From IMG/VR virus record IMGVR_UViG_3300045988_139610: a DNA stretch of 64,000 bases; one strand, given 5' to 3'. The DNA is from a virus. The notes under the pieces are model-generated. The model ran no database searches and was not told the DNA's origin. It saw only the letters and a program-made list of their open reading frames with translations. Shown piece after piece: positions 1,831-48,995 of the stretch. The translations under genes were made by a program, and so were the position numbers. The stretch's first letter is position 1. Each line of letters opens with the position of its first letter.

Positions 1831-1874
1831 TATTAGTATATTAACATAACCATATATAAAATTACCTATGAATT
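1831..1874 (-). promoter_or_regulatory. class-2 promoter-like two-box motif, copy a (ATAGGTAAT-N15-GTTAATA)
   Basis: minus strand reads TTCATAGGTAATTTTATATATGGTTATGTTAATATACTAATATAAGAGGTG; one of 8 copies with identical 15-nt spacing. Confidence 0.55.
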
Positions 1875-1875
1875 A

Positions 1876-2025
1876 TTATTTTTTATATCTTAAACTATAT
1901 ATTATTTCTCCTATTATTAATGACACTAAAACTACTACATAAGGAGTTACAAATTCTACTCGAAAAATTAATACTAGAGATAAGATTATAATAATACATC
2001 TTATAATCAAATCTTTTAAATTCAT
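1876..2025 (-). CDS. small hydrophobic protein (49 aa)
   Basis: hand-translated MNLKDLIIRCIIIILSLVLIF…; SD GGAGGTGAAGAG upstream; start overlaps the stop of the upstream small ORF (ATGA). Confidence 0.4.
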   Translation of the reverse strand: MNLKDLIIRCIIIILSLVLIFRVEFVTPYVVVLVSLIIGEIIYSLRYKK

Positions 2026-2198
2026 TTCTCTTCACCTCCTTCTATTAACTCAAAAAATTTACCGATACTATATATTCTATCACAATATTCAACTAAGTAT
2101 TTTTCTCTATCTCTTTGTCTTAAATCCATTCTTGCAGAATATATTGTGTTATAAACTTTCACTACTTTTAAACTACCATTAGTTATTAATTTTATCAT
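2022..2198 (-). CDS. small hypothetical protein (58 aa)
   Basis: hand-translated MIKLITNGSLKVVKVYN…; SD AAAGGAGAG upstream; below ORF-track cutoff. Confidence 0.4.
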   Translation of the reverse strand: MIKLITNGSLKVVKVYNTIYSARMDLRQRDREKYLVEYCDRIYSIGKFFELIEGGEEK

Positions 2199-2262
2199 AT
2201 TAACATCTCTCCTTTTTTTTATTAATTATTTTTATTTACTTCCTATTTCATATTAATTTCTT

Positions 2263-2427
2263 CTATTCTAACTCTTCCAATGTTCCTTCTACGAATACTG
2301 TCTTGACGCACTCTTTAGTGTCTTTATAATAAAAGAAACATTTCTCGCATTGTTTGTTAGATAACAACTCACACACTTCATTTGAATCAAGCTTTTTCAA
2401 TATATCTTTTAATTCTTCTATTGTCAT
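2263..2427 (-). CDS. small Cys-containing protein (54 aa)
   Basis: hand-translated MTIEELKDILKKLDSNEVCELLSNKQCEKCFFYY…; SD AAGGAGTGAG; TTGACG-N-TATACT promoter-like sequence upstream. Confidence 0.45.
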   Translation of the reverse strand: MTIEELKDILKKLDSNEVCELLSNKQCEKCFFYYKDTKECVKTVFVEGTLEELE

Positions 2428-2491
2428 ATTAAATCTCACTCCTTAACATAAATAAGTATATCATATTGTAAATATTCGTCAATACTTTTTA

Positions 2492-3265
2492 TTAATTATT
2501 TTCGGCTTTTTCTATTCTATTTTTAGCTATATTAAAGTAATTCTCATCTAGTTCAATTCCTATAAATTTACGATTAGTATTCATACAAGCAACCCCTGTA
2601 CTACCACTGCCCATAGTAAAATCTAATACTAAATCATTTTCATTAGTATATGTCTTAATCCAATATTCAAGTAATTTAATAGGTTTTTGTGTAGGATGTA
2701 TCCTATTTAAATTATTACATTCTCCTATAATTTTACTTAAACTATATAAATTTGTAGGATATCTTTTTGTATTATCATAATTTTTACTAAGTTTTGTAAT
2801 ATGTTTCCCATAATTATTGCTCGAATAACCTTCTTTGCTAATTGGTCTAATATTTTTTTGTTCTGCGTCAGTCATTTGAGGATTGTATATTGGTAATTTT
2901 TTATAAAAGACGCATATATCTTCTGTTCTTTTTAAAGGCATTCGTTTAGCATTAAGAAAACCACTTGGTAATTGTTTGTCCCATGTTATCCTATATTTAA
3001 ATTCTTTTAAATTACTACATATTAATTTACTTGTAAACGGCTCATCTGAAAATAATAATATAGGTGTATTTTTATTAATTAGTTTATGTATTTTTCCCCA
3101 CATACAATTAAAAGGAATTATTTCATCCCATTTATTTCTCGATGTTATTCCATATGGAATATCTGTAAATATCATATCAACTTTCATACCTTTTTCGATT
3201 AACATATCCATCACTTCTAAGCAATCGCCTTGATATAATTTATATCTTTCATTTTCTATACCCAT
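2492..3265 (-). CDS. DNA methyltransferase (N6/N4 type, DPPY-like motif)
   Basis: FTDIPYG (D/N-PP-Y/F-type motif) and LDFTMGSGSTGVA…IGIELD AdoMet-binding motif; paralog of 49537..50313. Confidence 0.9.
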   Translation of the reverse strand: MGIENERYKLYQGDCLEVMDMLIEKGMKVDMIFTDIPYGITSRNKWDEIIPFNCMWGKIHKLINKNTPILLFSDEPFTSKLICSNLKEFKYRITWDKQLPSGFLNAKRMPLKRTEDICVFYKKLPIYNPQMTDAEQKNIRPISKEGYSSNNYGKHITKLSKNYDNTKRYPTNLYSLSKIIGECNNLNRIHPTQKPIKLLEYWIKTYTNENDLVLDFTMGSGSTGVACMNTNRKFIGIELDENYFNIAKNRIEKAENN

Positions 3266-3277
3266 ATTAATACCTCC

Positions 3278-6862: not shown

Positions 6863-7690
6863 TTACATATTTATTGTTAAATCATTTTCTTCATATAAAC
6901 CGTATTTAATTGCTAAATCTTTTATTACAATTAATATTGCCTCAATTAATAACTTGTCTTCGTTTATTATGTCTAATTTATTTATTTTATCTGCTTTTGT
7001 TTTACTTACACCATTTTTAATAGCATTATTTTTTCTATTTTTTAATCTAGTATTTAAATTAACTCCAAATCTGTTATCTATTTCTTTATATATTTCATCA
7101 TATACAACCTTATGATTTATACCAGTTTTATATGTTATCTTATTTACCATATTTTTCACATCTGCTCTCCAATTATCTTTCGATAATGATATTAAGTCTT
7201 GTATATTATCTAATGAATTTTGAAGTCCTTTTATATCTTTTTCCATTTGTTTCTGTTTTAATTCTTGTTCAACCATACTATCAAATAATATTTTGAATGA
7301 CTGAAGATTAGGTGATAATTCTGTTGTGTCTATTGCTTGCATTTGTGCTAATTCCATTTCGTTGAAACGTTTAACATATTTTGCTGTAAATATTATACCT
7401 TTTTCACCTGTCATTTTGTTTGCTAACATTTCACAACCCATTTTAGTACATTCATAAAACGGTTTTTTTCTATTCATACTATCTTTGTAACTTGATTTTA
7501 TAAAGTAATCAGATAGGTGTAATTCTGCACTTATCTCTATAGTCGGTTTTATACCAACTATCCCACGTTTTTCATTTCCTTCTATCATCCACATTATTTC
7601 CTTATGTTCTTTTCCCATCATCTTAGCTACTTCATAACTAGGAATTGTTTCAACTTTCTTTCCTTTATTTATATCAATTATATTACTCAT
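6863..7690 (-). CDS. Rha-family phage regulatory protein / antirepressor
   Basis: IPSYEVAKMMGKEHKEIMWMIEG resembles the Rha N-terminal domain; start moved to the ATG 8 nt after AGGGAGAG (track start 7699 is GTG). Confidence 0.7.
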   Translation of the reverse strand: MSNIIDINKGKKVETIPSYEVAKMMGKEHKEIMWMIEGNEKRGIVGIKPTIEISAELHLSDYFIKSSYKDSMNRKKPFYECTKMGCEMLANKMTGEKGIIFTAKYVKRFNEMELAQMQAIDTTELSPNLQSFKILFDSMVEQELKQKQMEKDIKGLQNSLDNIQDLISLSKDNWRADVKNMVNKITYKTGINHKVVYDEIYKEIDNRFGVNLNTRLKNRKNNAIKNGVSKTKADKINKLDIINEDKLLIEAILIVIKDLAIKYGLYEENDLTINM

Positions 7691-7777
7691 ATTTCTCACT
7701 CTCCCTTATTAATTATTTTTAATCCTTTACTATTTTTGTCGAGGTATTTCAATAAATTTACATTTTAATCACCTTCT

Positions 7778-7820
7778 TATTATAGTATTATCAAAACTGT
7801 TATTGAAATTACCTATAATT
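7778..7820 (-). promoter_or_regulatory. class-2 promoter-like two-box motif, copy b
   Basis: minus strand TTATAGGTAATTTCAATAACAGTTTTGATAATACTATAATAAGAAGGTG. Confidence 0.5.
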
Positions 7821-12355: not shown

Positions 12356-12640
12356 TTAATTTTCTTCTATATCTATGTCAGTTATTGTTTTAAATATGTC
12401 TTTATTGAAGTTAGGTAATGAAGTAAATGCATTTTTTTCTTTATCATTTATATAATTCCACATATTTCTCCATGCCTCTTTATAATTTAATTCTTTTAAA
12501 TAACCTCTAGCAATTTTATAATTGGGATGTTTTTCTTTTTCTTCATCTGTCATTTCATATTCATTAACCCATAGAGTTAATTTAAAATAGTTATTTATTA
12601 TTTCAAATACACAACTTTTTTCCATGTGTCTAATGTCCAA
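12356..12640 (-). CDS. C-terminal part of a frame-split repeat protein (…MTDEEKEKHP…LPNFNKDIF…)
   Basis: no SD of its own; the frame joins 12598..13185 through a -1 shift at the A6 tract (T-run 12616-12621 on +). Confidence 0.6.
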   Translation of the reverse strand: MDIRHMEKSCVFEIINNYFKLTLWVNEYEMTDEEKEKHPNYKIARGYLKELNYKEAWRNMWNYINDKEKNAFTSLPNFNKDIFKTITDIDIEEN

Positions 12641-13185
12641 TCACTTTCTTTATTAAATAGTTTAATCGTTTCATGTTTATCATTATCGTCAGTGCAAAAG
12701 CATCCTAATTTTTTATTGCCTAAATTACAGTCTCCAATGTTATAATTACCTTTATTATAATTACCACTATTCCAATTTCCAGTATTCCAATCTCCAGTAT
12801 TCCAATCTCCAGGATTATAATCTCCAGTATTATAATTTCCAGTATTATAACTACCTGTGTTTTTAATACCTGTGTTACCTTCACCAGTATTAACCATATC
12901 TAATACTTCATGCCAGCTTAATTCTTTTATTATTTTTATTTCATTTGTTACACATTTATTATTTGAACAATCACTTTTTTCTATAATTTCACCAGTAGCT
13001 TCTATTATAGCTACTTTGTTTTCTGGGTCAAAAGTGTAATAATTAAAACAATCAACTAGCTTTTTACAAAAATGAAATCCTGCTTCACATATATCTATTT
13101 TCCCTTCATGTCTATATGTTTCTCCTACCTTATATTGAAAACCTCTGCAAGTCCAATCTGAATTAAATACTTTATATCCTTTCAT
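12598..13185 (-). CDS. repeat protein (N-terminal GFHFC domain plus NTGxxN hexapeptide-type repeats), N-terminal part of a frame-split gene
   Basis: YKVFNSDWTCRGFQY…AGFHFC domain shared with the C-terminus of 17793..18524; run of NTG(D/N)(Y/W)N repeats. Confidence 0.75.
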   Translation of the reverse strand: MKGYKVFNSDWTCRGFQYKVGETYRHEGKIDICEAGFHFCKKLVDCFNYYTFDPENKVAIIEATGEIIEKSDCSNNKCVTNEIKIIKELSWHEVLDMVNTGEGNTGIKNTGSYNTGNYNTGDYNPGDWNTGDWNTGNWNSGNYNKGNYNIGDCNLGNKKLGCFCTDDNDKHETIKLFNKESDWTLDTWKKVVYLK

Positions 13186-13272: not shown

Positions 13273-13285
13273 ATTACCACCCTCC

Positions 13286-13330
13286 TTATATTACTATATT
13301 AACATTAGCGTCATAAAAATTACCTATGAT
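13286..13330 (-). promoter_or_regulatory. class-2 promoter-like two-box motif, copy c
   Basis: minus strand CATAGGTAATTTTTATGACGCTAATGTTAATATAGTAATATAAGGAGG, nearly identical over ~50 nt to copy h at 48944-48995. Confidence 0.6.
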
Positions 13331-18524: not shown

Positions 18525-18540
18525 ATTTATTTCTCCTTTA

Positions 18541-19113
18541 TTAATTATTTTTAATTTCTTTTATTATATCTTTAATTAAATTGATTTTTCTATTAATTGT
18601 CACACTACTTACATTTAATTTTTTAGATATATTTTTTTGCTTGTATCCATCCATTAACATATCCATAATTATATGTAATTCTTCTGCATTAATCTTATTA
18701 AATTTATTAATATTTCTTTTTTTTATTATACTATCAAATTCATTCATTAATTCTATATATTCGATATTTTGATATTCTAAATCTATTTTTCCTATAGTAT
18801 CTAATAGAGTAGTCTGTTCTTTATCATCGTCAGATATATTAACATCCATAGATATAAGCATATCTTTGTCTCTATAATAAGTGTTTCTTAAATAGACATT
18901 GTATGAATTGTATATAATTGCACAAATAAATTTTTTAATATCCCCTTTAGACTCATCAAATTTATTTCTAGATTCCCAAAGTTGTAGTAACGAATATTGA
19001 ATCATATCTTCTTTAATTTTGAAAAATCCATTATAATTTTTATTATATATCTTACCAGCTAATTCTAAAGATAAATTTACATATTCTGTATCACTTATCA
19101 TTGTTTTACTCAT
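18541..19113 (-). CDS. sigma-70-family (ECF-like) sigma factor
   Basis: C-terminal region-4 HTH GYKQKNISKKLNVSSVTINRKINLIKDII; paralog of 19194..19784; start set to the ATG after AGGGGG. Confidence 0.65.
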   Translation of the reverse strand: MSKTMISDTEYVNLSLELAGKIYNKNYNGFFKIKEDMIQYSLLQLWESRNKFDESKGDIKKFICAIIYNSYNVYLRNTYYRDKDMLISMDVNISDDDKEQTTLLDTIGKIDLEYQNIEYIELMNEFDSIIKKRNINKFNKINAEELHIIMDMLMDGYKQKNISKKLNVSSVTINRKINLIKDIIKEIKNN

Positions 19114-19193
19114 CACTTTACCCCCTATAGTTTATTAATTATTTTTATCTATACATAGATTGTATGATATTGTAATGATATTTGCCACCTCCT

Positions 19194-19784
19194 TTATTCA
19201 TTATTTTTTATTTCTGTAATTATATCTTTTATTCTATTGACTTTCTTATTAACATTCGTACTGCTTACTCCTAACATTTTGCTGATTTCGCATTTATTAT
19301 AGCCTTCATATAGTTTATTAATTATAAAATGTAACTCATCCAAATCTATTTTTCTACTTGTATGTTTATTTCTCTCTTCAACTATATTATTAAATTTATT
19401 TATAAACTCTTGTTTTTCAATATTTTTATAGTTGATATCTTCTTTAAGAAAATGACTAATTAATTTATTATATTCCTTTCTACAATCCAGTAATGTATCA
19501 TTCATTGTATATATTCCTTCAGCAGAAATAACTTTACCTTTATTTTTATATACAAAGTCTCTCACATATTTTGTCATGCTCTTCCATGCAATAGCATTAA
19601 GATAAGTATTTAATGAAACATTTTTGCTTTCATCATATCTTTTTATGGCACTACACATTTGCATATAAGCATATGATTGCATATCGTCTTTAAATAGAGA
19701 GAATGTTTTAAATCGTTTATTCCATATTCCCTTTGTTATTTTTATCATCAATCTTCCTTGTTCTTCTGAAATTTTTTCTTTCAT
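19194..19784 (-). CDS. sigma-70-family (ECF-like) sigma factor
   Basis: GYNKCEISKMLGVSSTNVNKKVNRIKDII region-4-like HTH; same architecture as 18541..19113. Confidence 0.65.
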   Translation of the reverse strand: MKEKISEEQGRLMIKITKGIWNKRFKTFSLFKDDMQSYAYMQMCSAIKRYDESKNVSLNTYLNAIAWKSMTKYVRDFVYKNKGKVISAEGIYTMNDTLLDCRKEYNKLISHFLKEDINYKNIEKQEFINKFNNIVEERNKHTSRKIDLDELHFIINKLYEGYNKCEISKMLGVSSTNVNKKVNRIKDIITEIKNNE

Positions 19785-19874
19785 GTTTTCTTCCCCTTGT
19801 TTATCTTATACTATATATCATATGAACTTACTTGCCAAAAGTCAATACCTTTGACAAGATTTTATTAATTATTT

Positions 19875-24755: not shown

Positions 24756-24850
24756 ATTATCATTCTCCTTTTTATTTATTATTTTTATTGATATTTCATT
24801 AACTTTATTAATTATTTTTTATCAACACTCAATTTACATCAACTCCTTTC

Positions 24851-24893
24851 TTATATTACTATATTAACAATTAGTATTGAAAAATTACCTATA
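24851..24893 (-). promoter_or_regulatory. class-2 promoter-like two-box motif, copy d
   Basis: minus strand TTATAGGTAATTTTTCAATACTAATTGTTAATATAGTAATATAAGAAAGGAG. Confidence 0.5.
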
Positions 24894-24928
24894 AAAACAA
24901 AAAAAGAAACCAGAGATTTTCTAGTTTC
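24893..24928 (-). terminator. rho-independent terminator overlapping the stop of 24921..25793
   Basis: minus strand GAAACTAGAAAATCTCTGGTTTC (one G.U pair) followed by TTTTTTTGTTTTT. Confidence 0.65.
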
Positions 24929-28537: not shown

Positions 28538-28660
28538 CCACCGTTATTTTACATTGTTCATTCATAATATCATCTCCTTTATATTATAATTTAATAAAGA
28601 GGATAAGTAACGTTGTTTTTAATTGTGACACAACAAAACCTTATCCACTTTATTAATTGT

Positions 28661-28704
28661 TATTATTGTATTAACATAACTTTAAGTAAAATTACTTATG
28701 AATT
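28661..28704 (-). promoter_or_regulatory. class-2 promoter-like two-box motif, copy e (ATAAGTAAT variant)
   Basis: minus strand TTCATAAGTAATTTTACTTAAAGTTATGTTAATACAATAATAAC. Confidence 0.45.
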
Positions 28705-31075: not shown

Positions 31076-31081
31076 TTTATA

Positions 31082-33223: not shown

Positions 33224-33367
33224 ATTTACCACCCCTTTATTTTTATTATACTTAAAGTATAACATATTTAATTTTAAATTACAATAACTTTTTAATAATT
33301 TTATTAATTATTTTTATTATCTTTTCTATATGATAGTATAGATATATCTATACTATCATATAATGGT

Positions 33368-33856
33368 TTATATCATCATTTCTAGTTGATTTATCTTTCT
33401 TGATATAACATTATATATGAAATCTGCGTCTTCCATATCACAAATATAATTCCAAGCACATTGTTCTTCGTCTTCATAACCTAATTCATTGAAATCCTTA
33501 TATTCACTCCATGTCGCATTATCCCAAATATACTGTTGTTTATCTATATTGCTTTCAAATATTTCTTCACATTCTTCCATTAGATAGTCCACGAATTCTT
33601 GATAATCATCTTGTAATTCAATGTTACCAAATTCTGTCTCTGGTACTTCTACATATTCATTGAGTTCTATTATTAGTAATTGATTATCTTTTACTTCATT
33701 TGTAGCTGTTATTACTCCATTTAAATCTAGTACTATTTTAGTTTTTATTTTTCCATCATACCATGCTTGTTTATGAAGAGTGCAATAGCAGTCTATTATT
33801 TTGCCTTCTATTGTTTCGTCATTTAATAATTTTAAGAATCTTTTAATATTATTCAT
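33368..33856 (-). CDS. acidic hypothetical protein
   Basis: 162-aa ORF with SD GAAAGGGGA; KRFLKLLNDETIEGKI…CTLHKQAWYDG parallels 32699..33223. Confidence 0.7.
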   Translation of the reverse strand: MNNIKRFLKLLNDETIEGKIIDCYCTLHKQAWYDGKIKTKIVLDLNGVITATNEVKDNQLLIIELNEYVEVPETEFGNIELQDDYQEFVDYLMEECEEIFESNIDKQQYIWDNATWSEYKDFNELGYEDEEQCAWNYICDMEDADFIYNVISRKINQLEMMI

Positions 33857-33888
33857 ATCATTTATCCCCTTTCAATTATCTTGCTTAT

Positions 33889-33918
33889 ATTATAGCACTC
33901 AACTTATATAAAAGTCAA
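33889..33918 (-). promoter_or_regulatory. sigma-A-type promoter (TTGACT-18-TATAAT)
   Basis: minus strand TTGACTTTTATATAAGTTGAGTGCTATAAT. Confidence 0.55.
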
Positions 33919-33987
33919 GCGCTATCTTATTAATTATTTTTACTATCATTGTCAAGAATTTTTAAAAAATTTATTAATTATTTTTAT

Positions 33988-34018
33988 GCTGGTTTTTAAA
34001 GGATAAACCAATAAACCT
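33988..34018 (-). other. conserved-loop hairpin, copy A (TGGTTT-ATCCTTTAA-AAACCA)
   Basis: read in sequence, immediately after the stop of 34025..34879. Confidence 0.55.
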
Positions 34019-34024
34019 ATAATA

Positions 34025-34879
34025 TTATCCTATTAATTTATATTGATTTTGTAAATTTTCAAATACTATTAAAATATCTGAATCTCTTTTAGCATACCAA
34101 CATTTTTTATTTCTATTCCATCTAAATCCAAATTGTTTCAACATATTTCTAAAATCTTCTGATGGTTTACCTTCAAAATATAATTCTATTCCATTTTTTT
34201 CAAGGTTTTCTATTATATCAAATTTATTATTATTTTTATTATTTTTTTCTTGTCTTTTAGATTTTTTAACTTTTTCAACCACTTTGACTGTTTCATCATA
34301 ATTACCAAGGTTTAAAGATGGATAAAAATTAACGTCAAAATAATCTATTTGATAGTCACAATCAGAATATCTATATTGATTTATTATTTCCCAAACTCTT
34401 ATAACTAATTCTTTGCCATATATTGATAATTCTGGATATTCGATATATGGTGATATATCATAATTGATTATATTTTTATCATCATTTGCATAAACACTTT
34501 TAGGAGTTTCTTTTACAATTACAGTTAAACTACAACCTCCAGAAAATTCATGTTTTGTAACACTAAATTTACAATCTGGAAATTCTTCTTTTAATTGTTT
34601 TCTAACTAATTTTGCTATTGTTTTAATATCTAAATCTCTATTATATTTGTCACCCTTCCAACCATTTGCAGTATAAAATTCATTTCTTGTGCTTTCTGCT
34701 GTTTCCTCTGTTTTTATATTATCTCTATTTTTCCAAATAGGAAATAACATATCATATTCATTATTGACAGCTTTCATTGTTTCAGCGTCTCCACCTCTAT
34801 CTGGATGATGTTTAAAAGCTAATTTTTTAAATTGTTTTTTTAAGTCTTCTAAAGAGTTTACATTTTTAAAATATTTCAT
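34025..34879 (-). CDS. J-domain (DnaJ-like) protein
   Basis: LKKQFKKLAFKHHPDRGGDAETMKAVNNEYDML contains the HPD tripeptide in J-domain context. Confidence 0.8.
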   Translation of the reverse strand: MKYFKNVNSLEDLKKQFKKLAFKHHPDRGGDAETMKAVNNEYDMLFPIWKNRDNIKTEETAESTRNEFYTANGWKGDKYNRDLDIKTIAKLVRKQLKEEFPDCKFSVTKHEFSGGCSLTVIVKETPKSVYANDDKNIINYDISPYIEYPELSIYGKELVIRVWEIINQYRYSDCDYQIDYFDVNFYPSLNLGNYDETVKVVEKVKKSKRQEKNNKNNNKFDIIENLEKNGIELYFEGKPSEDFRNMLKQFGFRWNRNKKCWYAKRDSDILIVFENLQNQYKLIG

Positions 34880-34942
34880 ATCATTTGTCCCCTTTCAATT
34901 ATCTTATTAATTATTTTTAAGAGCTGGAAGGGATTAATTCCC

Positions 34943-35218
34943 TTACCATTTTTCATAATATTCATCATCTCCATATCTATCTAAATAAGTGTTTTTAGCA
35001 GTCATTTTAAAATCATATTCATTGTCTACATCACTTATTTCTATTATATATTTTTTTCTGTTTAAAGATACTTGTACGTCGGTAGCTCCAAAACATAAGT
35101 TGTCTAATACTTTTTTAATGTTGTTATAATTTAATTTATCCAATTGTTTATCCCAACAACCTATTATAAAACCTTCTTTATTTAATTTTTCTTCAATTCT
35201 TTGTTTATTTGTTTTCAT
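34943..35218 (-). CDS. hypothetical protein
   Basis: 91-aa ORF with SD AAAGGGGTTGA. Confidence 0.65.
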   Translation of the reverse strand: MKTNKQRIEEKLNKEGFIIGCWDKQLDKLNYNNIKKVLDNLCFGATDVQVSLNRKKYIIEISDVDNEYDFKMTAKNTYLDRYGDDEYYEKW

Positions 35219-35252
35219 AATATCAACCCCTTTTATTTATTATTATGCTTTA

Positions 35253-35282
35253 ATTGTATCACACTTTATTTTAATTTGTCAA
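35253..35282 (-). promoter_or_regulatory. sigma-A-type promoter (TTGACA-18-TACAAT, TGTG extended)
   Basis: minus strand TTGACAAATTAAAATAAAGTGTGATACAAT. Confidence 0.6.
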
Positions 35283-35318
35283 GAGCTTTTTTAAAAAAAA
35301 TTATTAATTATTTTTACG

Positions 35319-35349
35319 ACTGGTTTTTAAAGGATAAACCAGTAAACCT
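35319..35349 (-). other. conserved-loop hairpin, copy B (ACTGGTTT-ATCCTTTA-AAACCAGT)
   Basis: read in sequence. Confidence 0.55.
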
Positions 35350-35463
35350 TTTTATATTTATATAATATATGATTTTCTCATAACTTAATCACTCCTTAAA
35401 TTTATTAATTATTTTTATATTTCCCTAATTAATAGGGCTTGAGCTAGAGGACTTTAAGTCCTC

Positions 35464-35688
35464 TTATTTCCAATAACCTATAAAATACATATTATTATTT
35501 TCTAAAAAGTCTATAAAGTCTAAGATAAATTTATCTTTGTCTTTTACTTGCACTCCTCCTACTATATACAACTCCTTACCTTCATAGTCATCATATAATA
35601 ATATACCCTCATAATCTAGTAAATAGTCTACAACTAAATTATCATCTAATGTATCTAAAACATAACCATTAAAATTTAGCCATTCCAT
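35464..35688 (-). CDS. hypothetical protein
   Basis: start moved to the ATG (MEWLNF…) after AAAGGAGTGG. Confidence 0.65.
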   Translation of the reverse strand: MEWLNFNGYVLDTLDDNLVVDYLLDYEGILLYDDYEGKELYIVGGVQVKDKDKFILDFIDFLENNNMYFIGYWK

Positions 35689-35720
35689 AATTACCACTCC
35701 TTTATTTACTTATACTTAAT

Positions 35721-35749
35721 ATTATATACTATCATTTAAGATAAGTCAA
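35721..35749 (-). promoter_or_regulatory. sigma-A-type promoter (TTGACT-17-TATAAT) with ATGATAGTA half-operator in the spacer
   Basis: minus strand TTGACTTATCTTAAATGATAGTATATAAT. Confidence 0.6.
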
Positions 35750-35804
35750 TAATTTTATTAATATTATTCACTATCATTTTGATAGTATTGAGCAAAGGAG
35801 AAAA

Positions 35805-36317
35805 TTATTCCCCTAATTTACTTCTTATTTCTCTACAGTCTTGACAAATACCGTCGTTGTTGTTTAATTGTTTTCCACAAAAACCACAATAACTGGTATT
35901 TGTATATTCAACTGTATAATTATTATTAGTATCATTTTCATTGCTATTGTTAGTATTATTAGTATTGCCATTGTTAGTATTAGTATTACTATTACTATAA
36001 TTTTTATTATCATTACTATAATTTTTATTACTATTATTATAATTTTTATTACTATTATTGTATGTAGATTTTATTGTAGTTGTTTTTACAACATAATTGT
36101 TTTTACTATCATTATTGTTGTCTTCTTGTTGTCGTTCTTCTGGGTCTACTTCTTTTTCTTCTTTTACTGTTGTTTTTTCCATATAAACATATTGTTTTTT
36201 ACTATCATTTACAGTATTATCTTTTATGCTATCAAGTGTAAAAGCATGTACAAGCAATCCCGTAATTAACATACAATTAACCATTGCAACGCCTATAAAC
36301 CCTATATATTTTTTCAT
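35805..36317 (-). CDS. membrane-anchored Asn-rich low-complexity protein with C-terminal Zn-ribbon
   Basis: N-terminal TM helix; NNSNKNY repeats encoded by 3 x 21-bp DNA repeats (35994-36056); CGFCGK…CQDC. Confidence 0.7.
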   Translation of the reverse strand: MKKYIGFIGVAMVNCMLITGLLVHAFTLDSIKDNTVNDSKKQYVYMEKTTVKEEKEVDPEERQQEDNNNDSKNNYVVKTTTIKSTYNNSNKNYNNSNKNYSNDNKNYSNSNTNTNNGNTNNTNNSNENDTNNNYTVEYTNTSYCGFCGKQLNNNDGICQDCREIRSKLGE

Positions 36318-36378
36318 AATCTTATCACTCCTAATTAATATAATTTACTATCATTCTGATAGCTATGAGCTAAAGGGT

Positions 36379-36609
36379 TTAAAATAAACCCTTGTTGTAT
36401 TCTTCTAGTGTATGAGGGAAGTCGTATGCATACGGTCTATCTAATATATCATTTAATATTTCTTGTTTTATGCTATCGGTATCTACCCCTAATAAATCTC
36501 CTTCACTGTCATATACTAATTGATACTCTTGTTCTCCAGAAGTCCATTCATAAGTTTCTGTACTATCATTTAATTTAACTATTCTTCCATCAAATTTTTG
36601 TATTTTCAT
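36379..36609 (-). CDS. hypothetical protein
   Basis: 76-aa ORF with SD TAGGAGTGA. Confidence 0.65.
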   Translation of the reverse strand: MKIQKFDGRIVKLNDSTETYEWTSGEQEYQLVYDSEGDLLGVDTDSIKQEILNDILDRPYAYDFPHTLEEYNKGLF

Positions 36610-36673
36610 AACTTAATCACTCCTATTTAATATTATTTACTATCATTCTGATAGTTTTGAGCAAAGGAGAAAA

Positions 36674-37021
36674 TTATTCTCCTAATATAATTTTTTTACT
36701 GTTTTCTATATATTTTTTATCATCATTAGTGGCTTGATATTTTATTTCTTCTAAATAAACTTCCATAACTTCAACATTAACTCTTTTACCATCATTGTAT
36801 TTTTGAATTATATCGTTAATATTTTCATAAGTACTTGATTTTACACTACTTAATTCATTCTTCATATAATAAACTTCATTTTCTATATTTATCCTATCGT
36901 TGTAAAGTCCTAATTTGTCCAATAGATTTTTATAAAATCTAATATCCTTATCCATTAGTTGTTCTATTTGATATTGATATCCATATTCTTCTAATAATAT
37001 ATTTTTTTCTTTTTTAGTCAT
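36674..37021 (-). CDS. hypothetical protein
   Basis: 115-aa ORF with SD AAAGGAGTGG. Confidence 0.65.
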   Translation of the reverse strand: MTKKEKNILLEEYGYQYQIEQLMDKDIRFYKNLLDKLGLYNDRINIENEVYYMKNELSSVKSSTYENINDIIQKYNDGKRVNVEVMEVYLEEIKYQATNDDKKYIENSKKIILGE

Positions 37022-37110
37022 TTAAATCCACTCCTTTAATTCATTATATTTAATATTATATACTATCATTTAAGATAGTCTTGAGCTTAGAGGGATTATT
37101 TCCCTCTTAT

Positions 37111-37434
37111 TTATGCATCAATACCATTTTCAATTGTATTTTGTAATTCTAAAATATATTCTAATATTGTATTTCTGTTCACTCTTTTACTATCTTTTAT
37201 ATAATCCTTTAATTCTTCTATTACTCTTTGTGCATTATATAATTGACTTTTTGCATCATCAAATCTTAATTCATAATGTTCTTTTTCATATTTATAATAT
37301 TGCATATCTTTTTTAACTTCATTTACTTCTTCATTATGAAGCCCTTCCATAGCTTCGTATACATCATCAGTAACATTACCTTGTAAAGATTCCATATTAT
37401 TAATTATATTCCCGTTGTTTAAATAATACATCAT
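37111..37434 (-). CDS. hypothetical protein
   Basis: 107-aa ORF with SD TAGGAGTGA. Confidence 0.65.
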   Translation of the reverse strand: MMYYLNNGNIINNMESLQGNVTDDVYEAMEGLHNEEVNEVKKDMQYYKYEKEHYELRFDDAKSQLYNAQRVIEELKDYIKDSKRVNRNTILEYILELQNTIENGIDA

Positions 37435-37540
37435 AACTTAATCACTCCTATTTATTAATTATTTTTATGATTATATAATATCATGTTTTATTATTATTGT
37501 CAATAGTTTTATTAATTATTTTCGCCATCATTGCTTAATA

Positions 37541-37705
37541 CTATAAGTAGTATATTGTATTAAGCAAATCAATAATATCAACTACATTAACGTTGAATGC
37601 ATAACCTATACAGTCAACTACATACATCAATGCTATGGATATTTGATTTTTAAATATAACAATTCCTAATACTAACACTAATACAAATAACATTTTATTT
37701 TTCAT
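37541..37705 (-). CDS. small membrane protein (54 aa)
   Basis: hand-translated MKNKMLFVLVLVLGIVIFKNQ…; SD AAAGGAGATA. Confidence 0.4.
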   Translation of the reverse strand: MKNKMLFVLVLVLGIVIFKNQISIALMYVVDCIGYAFNVNVVDIIDLLNTIYYL

Positions 37706-37776
37706 AATCTTATATCTCCTTTTTATTAATATAATTTGCTATCATTCGATAGCTTGAGCTAGAGGAATAAATTCCT

Positions 37777-37923
37777 CTATTTAATAATTATTTTTCCTTT
37801 GCCTTCATATATTTTGTTATATAACATTTTAGTTCTTATTGCAAGACCTTTTGACTTTACTTTTGCTAAAAATTCTTCGCCTTCTTCTGTTACTAAATAT
37901 AAGCTATAATATACTTTCTTCAT
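37777..37923 (-). CDS. small hypothetical protein (48 aa)
   Basis: hand-translated MKKVYYSLYLVTEEGEEFLAKVK…; SD AAGGAGTGATGA. Confidence 0.4.
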   Translation of the reverse strand: MKKVYYSLYLVTEEGEEFLAKVKSKGLAIRTKMLYNKIYEGKGKIIIK

Positions 37924-37998
37924 AACTCATCACTCCTTAAATTTATTAATATTATATGCTATCTTTTTGATAGTCTTGAGCTAGAGGACTTTAATCCT

Positions 37999-38268
37999 CT
38001 ATTTATAATTTTCTATTAATTCTTTTTTATATTCTTCGGTGATATAGTAATTTAAATGTTCACCTAATTCAATGTTACAATTATAATACATATATTTACT
38101 ACATTCATTTTGAAACTTGTCGTATGAATTAGCTACTATCTTATAGGGACTTATCCATATATTATTTGTTCTTACTTTACAAGGTAATACATATATTTCA
38201 AAGTCTTTACTGTTTTTAACTTCTCTTCTTATTATTGCCTTCGCTTGATTAAATTTAATTTTTAACAT
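37999..38268 (-). CDS. hypothetical protein
   Basis: start moved to the ATG (MLKIKF…) after TAGGAGTGA. Confidence 0.65.
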   Translation of the reverse strand: MLKIKFNQAKAIIRREVKNSKDFEIYVLPCKVRTNNIWISPYKIVANSYDKFQNECSKYMYYNCNIELGEHLNYYITEEYKKELIENYK

Positions 38269-40849: not shown

Positions 40850-41069
40850 TGTGGATAACTTAGATTAAGAAAAAAAGTGTATAAGTGTATGAAAGCGTTG
40901 ATATTACTAGATTATATAGACTTATAGGTTGTTAGCTTGAGATGTAGTCGGAAATGTAATTGTAAGTATTGGTAATACTTGCTTTCGTATATATATTTAT
41001 ATACTATTAATAGGCTTGTGGATAACTAGCAAAATATTTGTGGATAACTAGGGAATATAGTGTTGATAA
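40850..41069 (+). promoter_or_regulatory. DnaA-box cluster (3 perfect TGTGGATAA plus 1 TGTTGATAA, same orientation): candidate origin
   Basis: TGTGGATAA (reverse complement of TTATCCACA) at 40850-40858, 41017-41025 and 41039-41047; TGTTGATAA at 41061-41069. Confidence 0.65.
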
Positions 41070-44150: not shown

Positions 44151-45107
44151 TTAAAAAATACTTGTCTTTATAAATAAGTCAGTATAATACTTAATTTTAT
44201 TATTTAACACAGCTTTAAAGTAAGGATATATATTATAATCTATTTTATCTACATTAAATTTAGATAATGTTATATTGACTGATTCAATAAAAGACTGTTT
44301 CATATCTTCATACGTGAAATCTATTAACTCAAAATCTTTTTGAAGAGACGACATACAATTATTTGATATTAAACTCTTATTAGGAATGTATGACAATGGT
44401 GAAATTTGTTCAGTTTGTTTCTTTTTAAAATATACTCTTTTATCTAAATCTTTCACATGAAATGTTATAGATTTTACACTTCGTCCCTTTTTATTTTCAG
44501 TATATGATAATTCAAACATTCCAGTATTATTTAATTCCTTTTTAGCTCGTTGAAGAACATTTCTTTTAAAATCAGCATACAAATTATATTTGTTGTTTAA
44601 CATTAATAAATCTTTTAATTCGTCTAGTTCATATGTTATATTTTCTTTTGTATTACTCCATAATCTAAGAAGGTCATATAATCTTTGGCTATATATTGAT
44701 TTTAAAGTTAAAAATATTTTCATATTAATAGGTGTATAAGCTTTGTAATTCATAAGAAGATGATAAACTTTATCAATGACAACTATTTTAAATAAATCTT
44801 CTTTTTTATTATATTCATACCCAGCTATAATACTATATTTACAGCTCCACTCACCATCTTCTCTAAAATATATTTTTTCATCTAGCATATTATCTAATAC
44901 TTTTTTAATACCTGGAACTGTTTTCTGTGTTTTATTTGAAATAAGATTTTGAAATTCTTGTTTGCTTATATAGCAATATGCATTGCCAGACTTAGCCTTC
45001 TGAAGTTTATACAATATGAAAATAAATATATTATTATGCATGAGAGATATGTTATATCTAGCACTAACTATCGTATTATTTTTCATAAGTATTTGATTTT
45101 TACTCAT
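44151..45107 (-). CDS. Rep_3-family-like plasmid replication initiator
   Basis: N-terminal …NTIVSARYNISLMHNNIFIFILYKLQK matches the Rep_3 signature (NxLIxARYxLSLxExRLxL); iterons directly upstream. Confidence 0.7.
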   Translation of the reverse strand: MSKNQILMKNNTIVSARYNISLMHNNIFIFILYKLQKAKSGNAYCYISKQEFQNLISNKTQKTVPGIKKVLDNMLDEKIYFREDGEWSCKYSIIAGYEYNKKEDLFKIVVIDKVYHLLMNYKAYTPINMKIFLTLKSIYSQRLYDLLRLWSNTKENITYELDELKDLLMLNNKYNLYADFKRNVLQRAKKELNNTGMFELSYTENKKGRSVKSITFHVKDLDKRVYFKKKQTEQISPLSYIPNKSLISNNCMSSLQKDFELIDFTYEDMKQSFIESVNITLSKFNVDKIDYNIYPYFKAVLNNKIKYYTDLFIKTSIF

Positions 45108-45143: not shown

Positions 45144-45312
45144 CCCTTAATATCTCGTATTAATAGCCCCTTATTTTAACATATTTAAAGTTATTATGAG
45201 TAATTAAGGAAATAAAATGCCCTTAAAAACACATATTTATAAACGAAATGATACTTAATTTAACATATATATCCCTTAAAAACACATATTAAGACCTTTA
45301 AAACTCATATAT
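45144..45312. repeat. iteron array upstream of rep (5 copies of CCCTTAnnnnnnC(A/G)TAT-like 18-mers)
   Basis: copies start at 45144, 45168, 45220, 45273 and 45295; 45220 and 45273 are identical (CCCTTAAAAACACATATT). Confidence 0.7.
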
Positions 45313-45403: not shown

Positions 45404-45452
45404 AATTCATAGGTAATTTTTCATTATTAGTTGTTAATTATATAAATATAAT
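45404..45452 (+). promoter_or_regulatory. class-2 promoter-like two-box motif, copy f
   Basis: ttcataggtaatttttcattattagttgttaattatataaatataat. Confidence 0.45.
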
Positions 45453-45526
45453 ACATATATTTGGAGTGTTTTTGTAATGGTGTCAAAGAAACTTAATAAA
45501 AAATAAGATGGACAAACATTTTTTTG

Positions 45527-45570
45527 TAATTCATAGGTAATTTTTTATACAGTTATGTTAATACATAAAT
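45527..45570 (+). promoter_or_regulatory. class-2 promoter-like two-box motif, copy g
   Basis: ttcataggtaattttttatacagttatgttaatacataaataag, 30 nt upstream of the SD of 45599..45829. Confidence 0.5.
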
Positions 45571-45598
45571 AAGAAATAAATAAAAAGGAGTTGATATT

Positions 45599-45829
45599 AT
45601 GTGGAGATATGCTGGTAAAAATAGTGCGACATTATCAGGAGCTGTGATAACTGCATTTGTATTATTTAAAGCTTTAAAATATTCAGTTATAGTTGGTGAA
45701 GCATTTGGAGAGGTGGCTTTCATAATAACATTAACAGGAATTATGTTTCTCCCTATGATTACATTACTACTAATGGTAGTAATTCACGATACTATAATTA
45801 AAAAGAGAAAAGATAAAAATCATAAGTAA
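45599..45829 (+). CDS. small membrane protein (2 predicted TM helices)
   Basis: 76-aa hydrophobic ORF with SD AAAGGAG. Confidence 0.65.
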   Translation: MWRYAGKNSATLSGAVITAFVLFKALKYSVIVGEAFGEVAFIITLTGIMFLPMITLLLMVVIHDTIIKKRKDKNHK

Positions 45830-45881
45830 TTTTTAAATAACTAATGTTAATATAATAATATAAGAAAGGAGGTGGTAGACC

Positions 45882-46100
45882 ATGAATGTCTTACAAAAGA
45901 TGAAAAAGATATTACTTAAGACATTCTTAAGTTTCGCTGATATTATATGCATATTGAGTGTAATATATGTTTTGTTATATATGATATACATTATAGGTGT
46001 ATCTCTTGCAACTGAAAACTTAACAGATGTTGCCATTGATTGTATTCTGCTTTTTGGAGCGTTAATGATTTTTTATATTTTTAGTGATATGATATCATAA
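45882..46100 (+). CDS. small membrane protein
   Basis: 72-aa hydrophobic ORF with SD AAGGAGGTGG. Confidence 0.65.
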   Translation: MNVLQKMKKILLKTFLSFADIICILSVIYVLLYMIYIIGVSLATENLTDVAIDCILLFGALMIFYIFSDMIS

Positions 46101-46398: not shown

Positions 46399-46458
46399 AA
46401 AATGGATTGTATAAAAAATATAAGTATTATCAAAAATAATTAATAAGGAGAGGATAAT

Positions 46459-46688: not shown

Positions 46689-47465
46689 ATGAAGAAAATA
46701 GATAGAACAGGTGAAATAAGTTATAACACTTTTGGTAGTAAGATAATTATAGTTAAATATAGAAATGCAAAAGATATAGATGTATATTTTCCAGAATACG
46801 ATTGGACTGCCAAAAATGTCCAATATAATAATTTTCAAATAGGTAAAATTGGATGTCCCTATGAAAGAAGAGTTTGTGATGTTGGTTATATTGGTGAGGG
46901 AGAATATGAGAGTAGAGAAAATGGCAAAAAGACAAAAGTTCATAACACTTGGAGTCATATGATAAAAAGATGTTATGATAAAAAATATAAAGAAAAACAT
47001 CCTACATATGTTGATTGCAAAGTTTGTGAGGAATGGTTAAATTTTCAAAACTTTGCTAAATGGTATTATGATAACTATTATGAGATAGAAGGACAACAAA
47101 TGCAACTTGATAAGGATATTTTGGTTAAAGGAAATAAAGTTTATTCACCAGATACTTGCATATTTGTACCACAAGCAATAAATAAATTATTTGTTAAAAG
47201 TAATAGCAGTAGGGGTGAATCGGTTATAGGGACACATCATGATAAAAATGATAGATATCAAGTAAATTGTCATATGATTAATCCTAAAACAGGAAAATCA
47301 AAAGGTAAATATTTAGGGATTTACGATACAGAACTAGAGGCATTTAAAGTATATAAATATTATAAAGAAGAGAATATTAAGGAAGTGGCAGATTATTACA
47401 AAAATTTAATTCCACAGAAACTATATCAAGTATTATATAATTATGAAGTAGAAATTGATGATTAA
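46689..47465 (+). CDS. AP2-domain / homing-endonuclease-like DNA-binding protein
   Basis: collinear paralog of 22633..23409 (FPEYDW, CPYER, GEGEY, RCYDKKY, EGQQM…LDKDILVK, EVADYYK…IPQKLY shared). Confidence 0.55.
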   Translation: MKKIDRTGEISYNTFGSKIIIVKYRNAKDIDVYFPEYDWTAKNVQYNNFQIGKIGCPYERRVCDVGYIGEGEYESRENGKKTKVHNTWSHMIKRCYDKKYKEKHPTYVDCKVCEEWLNFQNFAKWYYDNYYEIEGQQMQLDKDILVKGNKVYSPDTCIFVPQAINKLFVKSNSSRGESVIGTHHDKNDRYQVNCHMINPKTGKSKGKYLGIYDTELEAFKVYKYYKEENIKEVADYYKNLIPQKLYQVLYNYEVEIDD

Positions 47466-47467
47466 AT

Positions 47468-47482
47468 AAAAATAATTAATAA
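47468..47482 (+). repeat. representative + orientation copy of the 15-mer, 3 nt upstream of the SD
   Basis: aaaaataattaataaAAAGGAGG-N8-ATG. Confidence 0.8.
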
Positions 47483-47497
47483 AAAGGAGGAGATAAT

Positions 47498-48697
47498 ATG
47501 GAGAACCAATGTAAAATAACTGTAGTAGATGCACCATGTGGGTACGGCAAGACTTCGTTTGCAATACAATACATGAATAATGAGCTATTTGAAAGATTTA
47601 TGTATATAACACCGTTTTTATCTGAAATAAATAGAGTAATTAAAACTTGTGACCAAAGAGAGTTTAGAAAGCCAAATGAGAAACTAGGGAAAGGAAGTAA
47701 GACAAATCACTTCTATGAACTTGTAAAAGAAGGTTATAACGTAATTTCAACACATTCTTTATTTAGAGGGTTAAGTCAAGAAGTAATAAATGATATTCGA
47801 GAAGGTGAGTATATACTCATATTAGATGAAGTATGTGATGTTGTCGAACAAATTTCAATATCCAAGAGAGATATTGAAATATTAATAAATGAAAAAATAA
47901 TTGAAATAGACGAAGAAAATAAAGCCCATTGGATAGATGATACATATGAAGGTAAATTTAGTAGTATGAAAAATCCAATTAAAAATGGCGATGTATATTT
48001 CTTTAATAATTCACTAATGTTATGGACATTTCCAATTAATATATTTACAGCTTTTAAAGAGGTTTACATATTAACATATATGTTTAAAGGTCAAGTACAA
48101 AGATATTATTACGATTTAAATAACGTAGAATATGAATATAAATCAATAGATAAAATTGATAGCAAATATAATTTATGTGAATATCAAGAAATCAACGGTA
48201 GTAAATATAAAGACTTAATACATATATATGAAGGTAAATTAAATTCTATAGGAGATAAGACTACTGCACTGTCTAAAAGTTGGTATGATAAATCTAGCAA
48301 GAAGGAATTGATGAAAAAATTAAAGAATAATACAGCAAACTATTTTACACATATAGTTAAAGGAAAGGGTAAATTTAATATGTGGACTTGTTTTGAGGAT
48401 TATAAACAACAATGTAAAGGTAAAGGTTATACAAATGGATTTGTACCTTGTAATAGCAGAGCAACTAATGAATATAAAGATAAAACTAATTGTGCTTATT
48501 TAATAAATAGATATTATAAACCCACAATTAATAATTTCTTTGTTGATAAAGGAGTTAAAATAGACGAAGATATTTGGAGTTTATCTGAATTAATTCAATG
48601 GTTATTTAGAAGTGCAATAAGAGAAGAAAAAGAAATTAATTTATATATACCATCTAAGAGAATGAGAAATTTATTAATTATTTGGTTAGATAAGTAA
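47498..48697 (+). CDS. SF2-like P-loop NTPase/helicase-like protein (intact paralog)
   Basis: DAPCGYGKTS Walker A, ILILDEV Walker B, QWLFRSAIR motif-VI-like. Confidence 0.7.
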   Translation: MENQCKITVVDAPCGYGKTSFAIQYMNNELFERFMYITPFLSEINRVIKTCDQREFRKPNEKLGKGSKTNHFYELVKEGYNVISTHSLFRGLSQEVINDIREGEYILILDEVCDVVEQISISKRDIEILINEKIIEIDEENKAHWIDDTYEGKFSSMKNPIKNGDVYFFNNSLMLWTFPINIFTAFKEVYILTYMFKGQVQRYYYDLNNVEYEYKSIDKIDSKYNLCEYQEINGSKYKDLIHIYEGKLNSIGDKTTALSKSWYDKSSKKELMKKLKNNTANYFTHIVKGKGKFNMWTCFEDYKQQCKGKGYTNGFVPCNSRATNEYKDKTNCAYLINRYYKPTINNFFVDKGVKIDEDIWSLSELIQWLFRSAIREEKEINLYIPSKRMRNLLIIWLDK

Positions 48698-48834
48698 TTT
48701 TGTTACCTCTAAGGTTGCAAAATCAAAAATCGCACTTTAAAATAACATAGTTTTATCGCAATATTTTAAAGACAAAAAATTCATTTTCTTAAAAGAATAA
48801 AAGAAGAGTAAAAATAATTAATAAAGAGATAATT

Positions 48835-48854
48835 CCCCTTATTGAGATAAGGGG
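48835..48854 (+). other. hairpin CCCCTTAT/ATAAGGGG abutting an SD that leads only an 8-codon ORF
   Basis: read in sequence; followed by AAGGAGG and then TTG GTT TTT AAT TAT TAT GAC GAC TAG. Confidence 0.4.
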
Positions 48855-48943
48855 AAGGAGGAATAATAATTTGGTTTTTAATTATTATGACGACTAGGGG
48901 ATGAAGAATTATATTTATTCAAAGTGATAATAAAAATAATTTT

Positions 48944-48995
48944 AACTCATAGGTAATTTATATGACGCTAATGTTAATATAGTAATATAAGGAGG
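48944..48995 (+). promoter_or_regulatory. class-2 promoter-like two-box motif, copy h
   Basis: ctcataggtaatttatatgacgctaatgttaatatagtaatataaggagg, near-identical to copy c on the other arm. Confidence 0.6.

Follow-up and report, generated by a model that had tools for sequence, protein, structure and literature searches.

The 64,000-nucleotide (nt) stretch of viral DNA analysed here (IMG/VR record IMGVR_UViG_3300045988_139610; the whole stretch is hereafter called the window) carries a dispersed two-box motif, ATAGGTAAT followed after 15 nt by GTTAATA, which by pattern searches and comparison with related phages is real, strongly conserved and private to one phage family. We consider it probable, with moderate confidence, that the motif is a phage-specific middle or delayed-early promoter class read by one or both of two small phage sigma factors, and that a larger sigma-like protein of 396 amino acids (aa) is among its targets.

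By searching the window with the pattern ATAGGTAAT-N15-GTTAATA at up to two mismatches, nine matches were found versus 0.67 ± 0.84 expected from 100 dinucleotide shuffles, in which the maximum was three. All nine are intergenic and co-oriented with the local genes, five on the minus arm and four on the plus arm. The eight copies reported in the first-pass annotation (a to h) were all recovered at their places, together with their invariant 15-nt spacing and the variants it had described, namely ATAAGTAAT at 28669, GATAATA at 7786 and GTTAATT at 45409; a ninth copy absent from its list (copy i) was detected at 45822-45852 (+), reading ATAAGTAAT...GTTAATA, and a position-weight scan added a weak tenth candidate at ~11680 (-) with an intact box 2 and three mismatches in box 1. 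The form TGTTAATAT, claimed for five of the listed copies, was actually present in four of the eight (a, c, d and h) and reaches five only with the new copy, while the downstream TAATATAAGGAGG, said to follow most copies, does start ~3-4 nt past box 2 but takes a good form in only five of the nine. Neither box is enriched alone, as ATAGGTAAT with up to one mismatch gave 63 window matches versus 56 expected and TGTTAATA gave 16 versus 14, so the signal consists of both boxes paired at a fixed distance. The boxes are not complementary, hence no hairpin is expected from the motif, and a known RNA element was rejected because neither Rfam (at gathering thresholds) nor a tRNA scan gave a match anywhere in the window. 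A literature search for the box sequences found no description of the motif.

Conservation in relatives, which the first-pass annotation had proposed to look for, was evident as many copies per relative genome. A scan of IMG/VR with a strict 20-base version of the motif matched 99 stretches, almost all of them on a dozen contigs of 133-140 kb, each of which was hit many times; these contigs share synteny and 70-95% identity with the window. In total, 204 motif instances with 135 distinct sequences were collected from the relatives. Since the boxes are conserved by construction of this search, box 1 was also searched alone: 144 of the 185 distinct matches had GTTAATA (up to one mismatch) exactly 15 nt downstream, and the remainder were chance-like, several recurring identically in relatives. 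The spacing was exactly 15 nt in 140 of 147 pairs of box 1 and GTTAAT, with two at 14 and two at 16. Box 2 varied to TGTTAATT, CGTTAATA, TGATAATA and similar forms in the box-1-only search, in which a drift to TATAAT was never seen, and GAT as the start of box 2 was found in copy b and in five relatives. At the site orthologous to copy h, the boxes, upstream tract and leader are preserved in all ten sequence variants, and the spacer differs in nearly every relative.

The strict motif was further scanned against one genome each of 185,579 bacterial and archaeal species, which yielded only three matches: two in fragments of the same phage family within a metagenome-assembled genome (MAG) of a human-gut Firmicute, and one chance match in a contig of 59% GC. 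This confinement to the phage family argues that the motif is not a host regulon signal. No intergenic copy at up to two mismatches was found in the Clostridioides difficile phage phiCD211, a distant relative (see below), whose sole site within that limit is without the extended box 1, the TAATAT block and the ribosome-binding site (RBS) that accompany the motif.

The anatomy of the element was derived from the 135 distinct copies. An A-rich tract occupies the region upstream of position -3; box 1 spans positions -3 to 13 and comprises A-3, T-1, C0, ATAGGTAAT and TTT(T), in short form (A.TC)ATAGGTAATTT; the spacer at positions 14-23 carries ~0 bits, being ~10 nt of free sequence; box 2 (positions 24-31) is T24 followed by GTTAATA; and a third block, TAATAT, at positions 35-40 is succeeded by AAG from 41 and by a strong RBS at ~43-48. 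Conservation extends beyond the search pattern, with A-3 in 125 copies, T-1 in 113, C0 in 115, T10 in 133, T11 in 131 and T24 in 125, and G25 occurs in 134 of the 135. At position 32, which would be -7, the counts are 62 C, 64 T and 9 A. An RBS was recognized in 113 of the distinct copies and begins at position 40-45, i.e. 9-14 nt past box 2, in 105 of these 113, and in 131 of the 135 the next 400 nt contain the start of an open reading frame (ORF) of 50 aa or more. The word G(G/T)TAAT occurs in both boxes at a distance of 21 bp, or two helical turns.

Orientation with the genes, intergenic position, a free spacer of fixed length and terminator-like hairpins lying directly upstream of copies c and d all fit a promoter. 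As the RBS stands at a fixed distance, transcription is expected to start at or before about position 40, which points to box 2 as the -10 element; the third block, TAATAT, is unlikely to be the -10, because the transcript would then lose the RBS. Under the proposed mechanism, box 1, (TC)ATAGGTAATTT, would be the -35 element and box 2, (T)GTTAATA, the -10 element, and transcription would start ~6-9 nt past box 2, inside the TAATAT block, leaving the 5′ end of the mRNA only ~4-8 nt ahead of the strong RBS. The first-pass annotation had proposed a promoter class read by a phage sigma factor. The part of this proposal that is supported is a class distinct from sigma-A promoters, as judged from its placement, its free spacer of fixed length, the fixed RBS, a box 2 without drift to TATAAT and a would-be -7 base that is C as often as T; three sigma-like proteins do exist as well, and the evidence on which of them reads the motif is circumstantial. 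Sigma-A-type promoters are themselves abundant along the minus arm, as near-consensus TTGACA-17-TATAAT often with TG. The motif, in contrast, has no TTGACA, and the TTGACA promoters of this phage have T at -7 in 10 of 12 cases versus 64 of 135 motif copies when box 2 is read as TGn-TAATAN. Tested as a sigma-A extended -10, the motif offers TG in ~93% of copies and TAATA(T/C) with T at -7 in those 64 of 135, with no drift to TATAAT, and its invariant box 2 bases (G25, T27, A28, A29 and T30) are not those that sigma-A needs.

To define the genes behind the motif, the first long ORF downstream of each of the 135 distinct copies was clustered and scanned. Replication and nucleotide genes were among them, encoding NrdD, a PolIII-alpha-like and a second DNA polymerase, a DnaB-like helicase, a Sak4-like ATPase and a nucleotide kinase, along with DNA methyltransferases (one containing an intein) and a transposase; ~22 of the 131 genes encode HNH homing endonucleases and 11 encode Ant/Bro-like proteins, the others including YopX-like proteins and small unknowns. 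Among these downstream ORFs, none is a gene for capsid, tail, portal or terminase. The genes behind the motif form a replication or accessory (‘middle’) class. Gene multiplication is also seen in the window: paralogous HNH endonuclease genes lie at 22633-23409 (-), 46689-47465 (+) and 60587-61579 (+), and a gene for a 390-400-aa protein with no known function is duplicated, one per arm, at 27362-28537 (-) and 47498-48697 (+). The relatives hold extra copies of the HNH and 390-400-aa genes elsewhere, often behind a motif promoter.

Family models together with profile and structure comparisons supported all three sigma-like proteins named in the first-pass annotation. The first, 18541 (18541..19116, -), is a sigma-70-family protein of 191 aa with sigma2 and sigma4 domains joined by a disordered linker; the second, 19194 (19194..19784, -; 196 aa), is its paralog with 39% identity and a similar region-4 helix, and both are candidate readers of the motif. 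Against TIGR02937, the generic sigma-70/ECF model, residues 27-187 of 18541 scored 43.5 bits (cut-off 42.9), whereas 19194 scored 37.1 bits, below the cut-off. A profile of the small-sigma family retrieved only sigma factors from the PDB at E < 0.01 (8x6g_H and 3mzy_A, the latter a SigH). The AlphaFold model of 18541 has a mean pLDDT of 75 and shows two helical domains with a disordered linker at residues 85-116, and a Foldseek search with it returned sigma factors throughout, led by Bacillus subtilis SigH and ECF sigmas, at low TM scores because the domain orientation is free. Profile and predicted-structure comparisons thereby show the two small proteins to be of the sigma-70 family, ECF/SigH-like. 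The third protein (50324..51514, +; 396 aa) matches the ‘sigma factor’ family phrog_5767 at 1e-76 and has a region-4/GerE helix-turn-helix at residues 300-343.

Homologs of the small sigmas, 63-100% identical, were found only on contigs of the same phage family, both by protein search and by a viral-contig scan, which therefore returned no independent lineage for a co-variation test; tblastn against phages (the INPHARED collection) and plasmids gave no match, and phiCD211 has no homolog of either, while it keeps the 396-aa sigma at 33% identity. The motif and the small sigmas are thus confined to the same phage family and both missing from phiCD211, a comparison of one lineage with one. Ahead of both small sigma genes lies a sigma-A-type promoter (19817..19845, -; TTGACT-17-TATGAT), which is conserved and reads TATAAT in the relatives, so that these genes are likely to be early genes dependent on host RNA polymerase (RNAP). 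The sequence data favour the small paralogs (18541 and 19194) over the 396-aa protein as readers, because they are early genes with their own conserved sigma-A promoter and because phiCD211 keeps the 396-aa sigma without the motif. At the same promoter, the -35 is bracketed by an inverted repeat of 8-9 nt (19817-19860, -), as is also the case at the orthologous sites of the relatives L006, L021, L031, L079, L111, L112 and L114; the sequence of the repeat varies among relatives with complementarity kept (TTGCCAAA/TTTGGCAA, TACTAGAA/TTCTAGTA and CTCATTAG/CTAATGAG), and it could form a hairpin or be a co-evolving operator that controls sigma expression.

From this arrangement a cascade can be proposed. 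The small sigma genes would be expressed early from the host sigma-A promoter, host core RNAP with one or both of the small ECF/SigH-like sigmas would then read the motif promoters, including those ahead of the 396-aa sigma, and the latter would in turn serve the late genes. The plus arm from 45.4 to 51.5 kb has f, g, i and h as its motif promoters, lacks a convincing sigma-A promoter and ends with the 396-aa sigma gene, after which genes for an exonuclease, terminase, portal and protease follow; this position, downstream of copies f-h and upstream of the late genes, makes the 396-aa protein a candidate late sigma. A k-mer survey of the oriented window for a second non-sigma-A promoter class, late promoters for instance, gave only the AAATAATTAATAA element (see below) and sigma-A-type early promoters, and the few late-region intergenic stretches available had nothing obvious in common.

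Several points weigh against reading the motif as the promoter of a small phage sigma. Its promoter activity, start site, reader and cascade are all things we infer, and the data cover the window, which is half of a genome, together with fragments of relatives. T24-G25 with TAATA(T/C) could act as a host sigma-A extended -10 in about half of the copies, with box 1 as an activator site. The GGTAAT-N15-GTT spacing is 2-3 nt shorter than is typical of ECF promoters and 2-3 nt longer when measured as for SigH, and the conserved part of box 1, at ~14 nt, is longer than is usual for contact by a region-4 helix. The reader may yet prove to be the 396-aa sigma, and the co-occurrence of motif and small sigmas, resting on one phage lineage with phiCD211 as the one contrasting lineage, is weak evidence phylogenetically.

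Among the alternatives, host sigma-A might read box 2 as an extended -10 (TGnTAATAT) while a phage activator bound at box 1 replaces the -35 contact, following the logic of T4 middle promoters (MotA box and sigma-70 -10) or of class II activators. T24 and G25, in 125 and 134 of 135 copies, do stand one base ahead of TAATA(T/C), box 1 is long (~14 nt) and placed exactly at -35, G(G/T)TAAT recurs in both boxes at 21 bp, and the phage encodes many DNA-binding proteins, among them Ant/Bro-like and helix-turn-helix proteins. This explanation is nevertheless unlikely: the -7 base is C or A in 71 of 135 copies, box 2 never moves toward TATAAT and its invariant bases are unlike those required by sigma-A, the same genome has near-consensus TTGACA/TATAAT promoters elsewhere, and two family-specific sigma genes would be left without a recognizable promoter class in the window. 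No MotA/AsiA-like annotation appeared among ~60 ORFs scanned either, most early ORFs being without annotation. We regard as less likely still that the reader is the 396-aa protein or a host alternative sigma of the clostridial TcdR/BotR or SigH type. The 396-aa protein matches a ‘sigma factor’ family strongly, yet its gene is preceded by motif promoters and not by a dedicated sigma-A promoter, so that it would have to start its own synthesis, and phiCD211 has the protein and not the motif, although at 33% identity specificity could differ. A host sigma is suggested by box 2, which equals the BotR-type -10 GTTAAT (PMC4031146), and by box 1, which fits the SigH -35 RNAGGAWWW at eight of nine positions (PMC8510167); against it, the strict motif is absent from the reference bacterial genomes, including the MAG with the phage fragments, save for those fragments and the chance match, the -35 of the TcdR group is TTTACA and the phage sigmas have no SRQ motif (PMC4031146), and the spacing is 2-3 nt off that of SigH promoters.

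It is, finally, highly improbable that the repeat is mainly a recombination or mobility signal, such as a cassette end, a sequence associated with homing endonucleases or a shuffling hotspot. The ~22 HNH homing endonucleases among 131 downstream genes, with multi-copy Ant-like genes or a transposase among the others, and the apparent acquisition by copy c of the spacer of copy h from the opposite arm would suit such a role; the orientation, however, always follows the gene, the RBS distance is fixed, the element has two boxes around a free spacer with no partner repeat at cassette 3′ ends, and core replication genes (DNA polymerase, DnaB and NrdD) are preceded by the motif as well. Recombination is moreover expected between any dispersed 50-nt repeats and is compatible with promoter function.

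Compared with known promoter systems, the motif resembles several in part. T4-type phages use middle promoters made of a MotA box and a sigma-70 -10, and PeSL promoter cassettes occur in T4-like phages. As in T4, a phage-specific box replaces the -35 ahead of a -10-like element, and as with the PeSL cassettes the promoter copies are dispersed and recombining, some right after a stem-loop, and stand ahead of accessory and homing-endonuclease genes; different from T4 are a box 2 that is not a normal sigma-A -10, no known MotA/AsiA homolog and a Firmicute host. The middle promoters of the Bacillus phage SPO1 read AGGAGA/TTTnTTT, box sequences unrelated to those found here, where in addition two tandem sigma paralogs are encoded, the RBS stands at a fixed promoter distance and the small sigmas match no phage in the INPHARED collection. 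In SPO1, host sigma-A serves early genes, gp28 middle genes and gp34 late genes (PMC13401047). The likeness lies in a large Firmicute phage that would rely on host core RNAP throughout its putative cascade, early genes with sigma-A promoters that encode a small phage sigma, a distinct two-box class for middle (replication) genes and, if the proposed cascade holds, a further phage sigma made from middle transcripts for the late genes.

ECF promoters combine a -35 of GGAA(T/C) or GTAAC with a -10 of GTT or GAT, as exemplified by Corynebacterium glutamicum SigH (GGAA(T/C)/GTT) and SigD (GTAAC/GAT) (PMC6338062). The present motif resembles them in a -35 core of G-G/T-A-A with a T-rich tail, a -10 of GTT with a natural GAT variant and a rigid spacer, and 18541 shares the two-domain build of sigma2 and sigma4 (PMC6338062); however, GGTAAT-to-GTT measures 15 nt here versus ~17-19 (more broadly ~16-19) in ECF promoters, the -10 extends to GTTAATA, no anti-sigma partner was identified, and 18541 only just passes the generic sigma-70/ECF model and fits no specific ECF subgroup. 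The clostridial group 5 factors TcdR, BotR, TetR and UviA recognize a -35 of TTTACA and a -10 of GTTATA or GTTAAT and carry an SRQ motif in region 4.2 (PMC4031146). Low-GC clostridial hosts and a -10 that is the same as in box 2 are held in common, whereas the -35 differs (TTTACA there, ATAGGTAAT here) and all three phage sigma-like sequences are devoid of SRQ. SigH promoters read RNAGGAWWW, 11-12 nt, RNNGAATWW (PMC8510167), which box 1 fits at eight of nine positions, but the gap measures 14 nt and TAAT stands in box 2 where SigH promoters have GAAT. On these consensus comparisons, none of the three alternative-sigma families (ECF, TcdR/BotR and SigH) fits the motif fully.

The individual copies are distributed over both arms of the window. 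On the minus strand, copy a (1822..1872, core 1839-1869) has box 1 at 1861-1869, box 2 at 1839-1845 and TAATAT at 1830-1835, followed by the RBS and a start-stop ATGTAA at 1810-1815, upstream of the gene at 618-1748 (-). Copy b (7769..7819, core 7786-7816; box 2 GATAATA) lies directly downstream of a sigma-A-type promoter and is followed by an RBS and ATGTAA at 7758-7763, upstream of an Ant-like gene at 6863-7699 (-). Copy c (13280..13330, core 13297-13327), with its terminator-like hairpin upstream, precedes a 22-codon YopX-like remnant and then the gene at 12598-13185 (-), while copy d (24845..24895, core 24862-24892) comes right after a hairpin and T-run terminator, upstream of an Ant-like gene at 24015-24755, and copy e (28652..28702, core 28669-28699; box 1 ATAAGTAAT) has a long leader with a hairpin ahead of the gene at 27362-28537. 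On the plus strand, copy f (45406..45456, core 45409-45439; box 2 GTTAATT) is the first promoter of the arm, stands in tandem with copy g, is followed by a 9-codon ORF and is conserved in relatives; copy g (45530..45580, core 45533-45563) is upstream of a small membrane-protein gene at 45599-45829, and copy i (45819..45869, core 45822-45852; box 1 ATAAGTAAT) is upstream of the gene at 45882-46100. Copy h (48946..48996, core 48949-48979) precedes the gene at 49084-49347, a methylase gene at 49537-50313 and the 396-aa sigma gene at 50324-51514.

The reported near-identity of copies c (13297) and h (48949) includes the spacer: copy c has the same ATGACGCTAA as copy h on the opposite arm, and its orthologs in most relatives have ATAAAGTTTA, which points to gene conversion between dispersed promoter copies. 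A start codon with an immediate stop (ATGTAA, ATGTAG or ATGTGA) follows the motif's RBS, suitably spaced from it, in 31 of the 135 distinct copies; among the 56 copies with an RBS and ATG, a stop as second codon was thus found in 31 versus ~5 expected from composition, many of them orthologous. In these start-stop copies, the real gene with its own RBS lies 60-140 nt further downstream.

The window has ~25% GC and consists of two divergently transcribed arms around an ORF-free centre, with minus-strand genes up to ~39.3 kb. It encodes a Rep3-type initiator, an FtsK-like ATPase, a partition protein, a DNA ligase, methyltransferases, Ant/Bro-like proteins and several HNH endonucleases, while the terminase, portal and protease genes lie distally on the plus arm. 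The C. difficile phages phiCD211 and phiCDIF1296T (131 kb), whose layout is likewise divergent, encode a protein with 33-35% identity to the 396-aa protein, and on this identity and the common layout the window is assigned to a distant phiCD211-like phage or phage-plasmid, with a genome of roughly 135 kb. Megablast of the window against phages found only a 214-nt methylase match, and blastn against plasmids found only the rep gene and one other gene. The host, judged from the two phage fragments binned in the MAG, is an uncultured gut Firmicute. The large terminase gene is apparently split into an N-terminal part at 54972-55487 (+) and a C-terminal part at 56886-58013 (+), separated by an endonuclease ORF (55572-56414) together with ~470 nt of non-coding sequence that is richer in GC; the interruption may represent an intron that harbours a homing endonuclease, though no Rfam family matched.

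The first-pass annotation had also linked the motif to the ORF-free centre through an activator binding both. The four cores ATAGGTA(T/A)A were indeed located at 40486, 40592, 40666 and 40736, and four within 250 nt are improbable by chance, but the cores have only a 7-9-mer in common with box 1 and box 2 does not occur there, so the link is not supported. As the whole centre is 91-95% identical among relatives, conservation of the cores (one of the four is lost in one relative) is uninformative, and the cluster as a functional link to box 1 was set aside on that account; an activator common to the motif and the centre would be no more than a possibility. The cores are also unlikely to be Rep iterons, since clearer iteron-like repeats adjoin the rep gene: direct repeats at 45161-45290 (+), just upstream of the Rep3 initiator gene (44151-45107, -), contain two copies of CCCTTAAAAACACATATT at a distance of 53 nt and weaker ones recurring every 52 nt. 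DnaA-box-like TGTGGATAA sequences at 40850-41069 (+), three exact and one with a single mismatch, the last three being 22 nt apart, together with a change in the sign of GC skew, suggest that the ORF-free centre is probably the replication origin.

Two further repeats were noted in the window. The word AAATAATTAATAA has 56 exact occurrences versus 0.34 expected, an excess far above that of any other word, and nearly all of them follow the direction of transcription (e.g. 18538-18550 (-), 19862-19874 (-), 46434-46446 (+) and 63389-63401 (+)); it sits at gene junctions, directly ahead of an RBS or a TTGACA promoter, and often contributes the upstream gene's stop codon, as in several proteins that end in ...KNN*. 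In the early minus-arm region 30945-38000 (-), a repeated unit of a hairpin, AGCTC(T/A)(T/A)GAC and ...TGATAGTA(T/A)ATAAT was seen, and sigma-A-like promoters recur every 300-700 nt ahead of small ORFs without a known family.

A broader and rather doubtful view is that the unit under selection is an expression cassette of ~60 nt, comprising the A-rich tract, -35, -10, start site and 5′-terminal strong RBS. The phage would copy this cassette between arms, ahead of replication and selfish genes, and the 5′-terminal RBS or the start-stop would recruit a ribosome, protecting the 5′ end of the mRNA against RNase J-type decay, and would also tune the real gene 60-140 nt downstream. If so, promoter, mRNA stabilizer and translational pre-loading would evolve as one module read by a private sigma.

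Phage sigma regulons are well known from SPO1, T4 and others, so the proposed mechanism, which repeats the theme of the phage sigma cascade, is useful rather than surprising; the motif sequence, the sigma family and the phage group are undescribed, and the attached RBS, the start-stop leader and the copy-to-copy conversion add some interest. The 31-nt signature is specific enough to flag this phage family in metagenomes, and if the sigma dependence is true, the two would serve together as an orthogonal sigma-promoter pair for expression in low-GC Firmicutes. For the family itself, a widespread group of uncultured ~135 kb gut phages distantly related to C. difficile phiCD211, the motif provides a testable regulatory map, which proposes the early genes (sigma-A), the middle genes (motif) and the place of the late switch.

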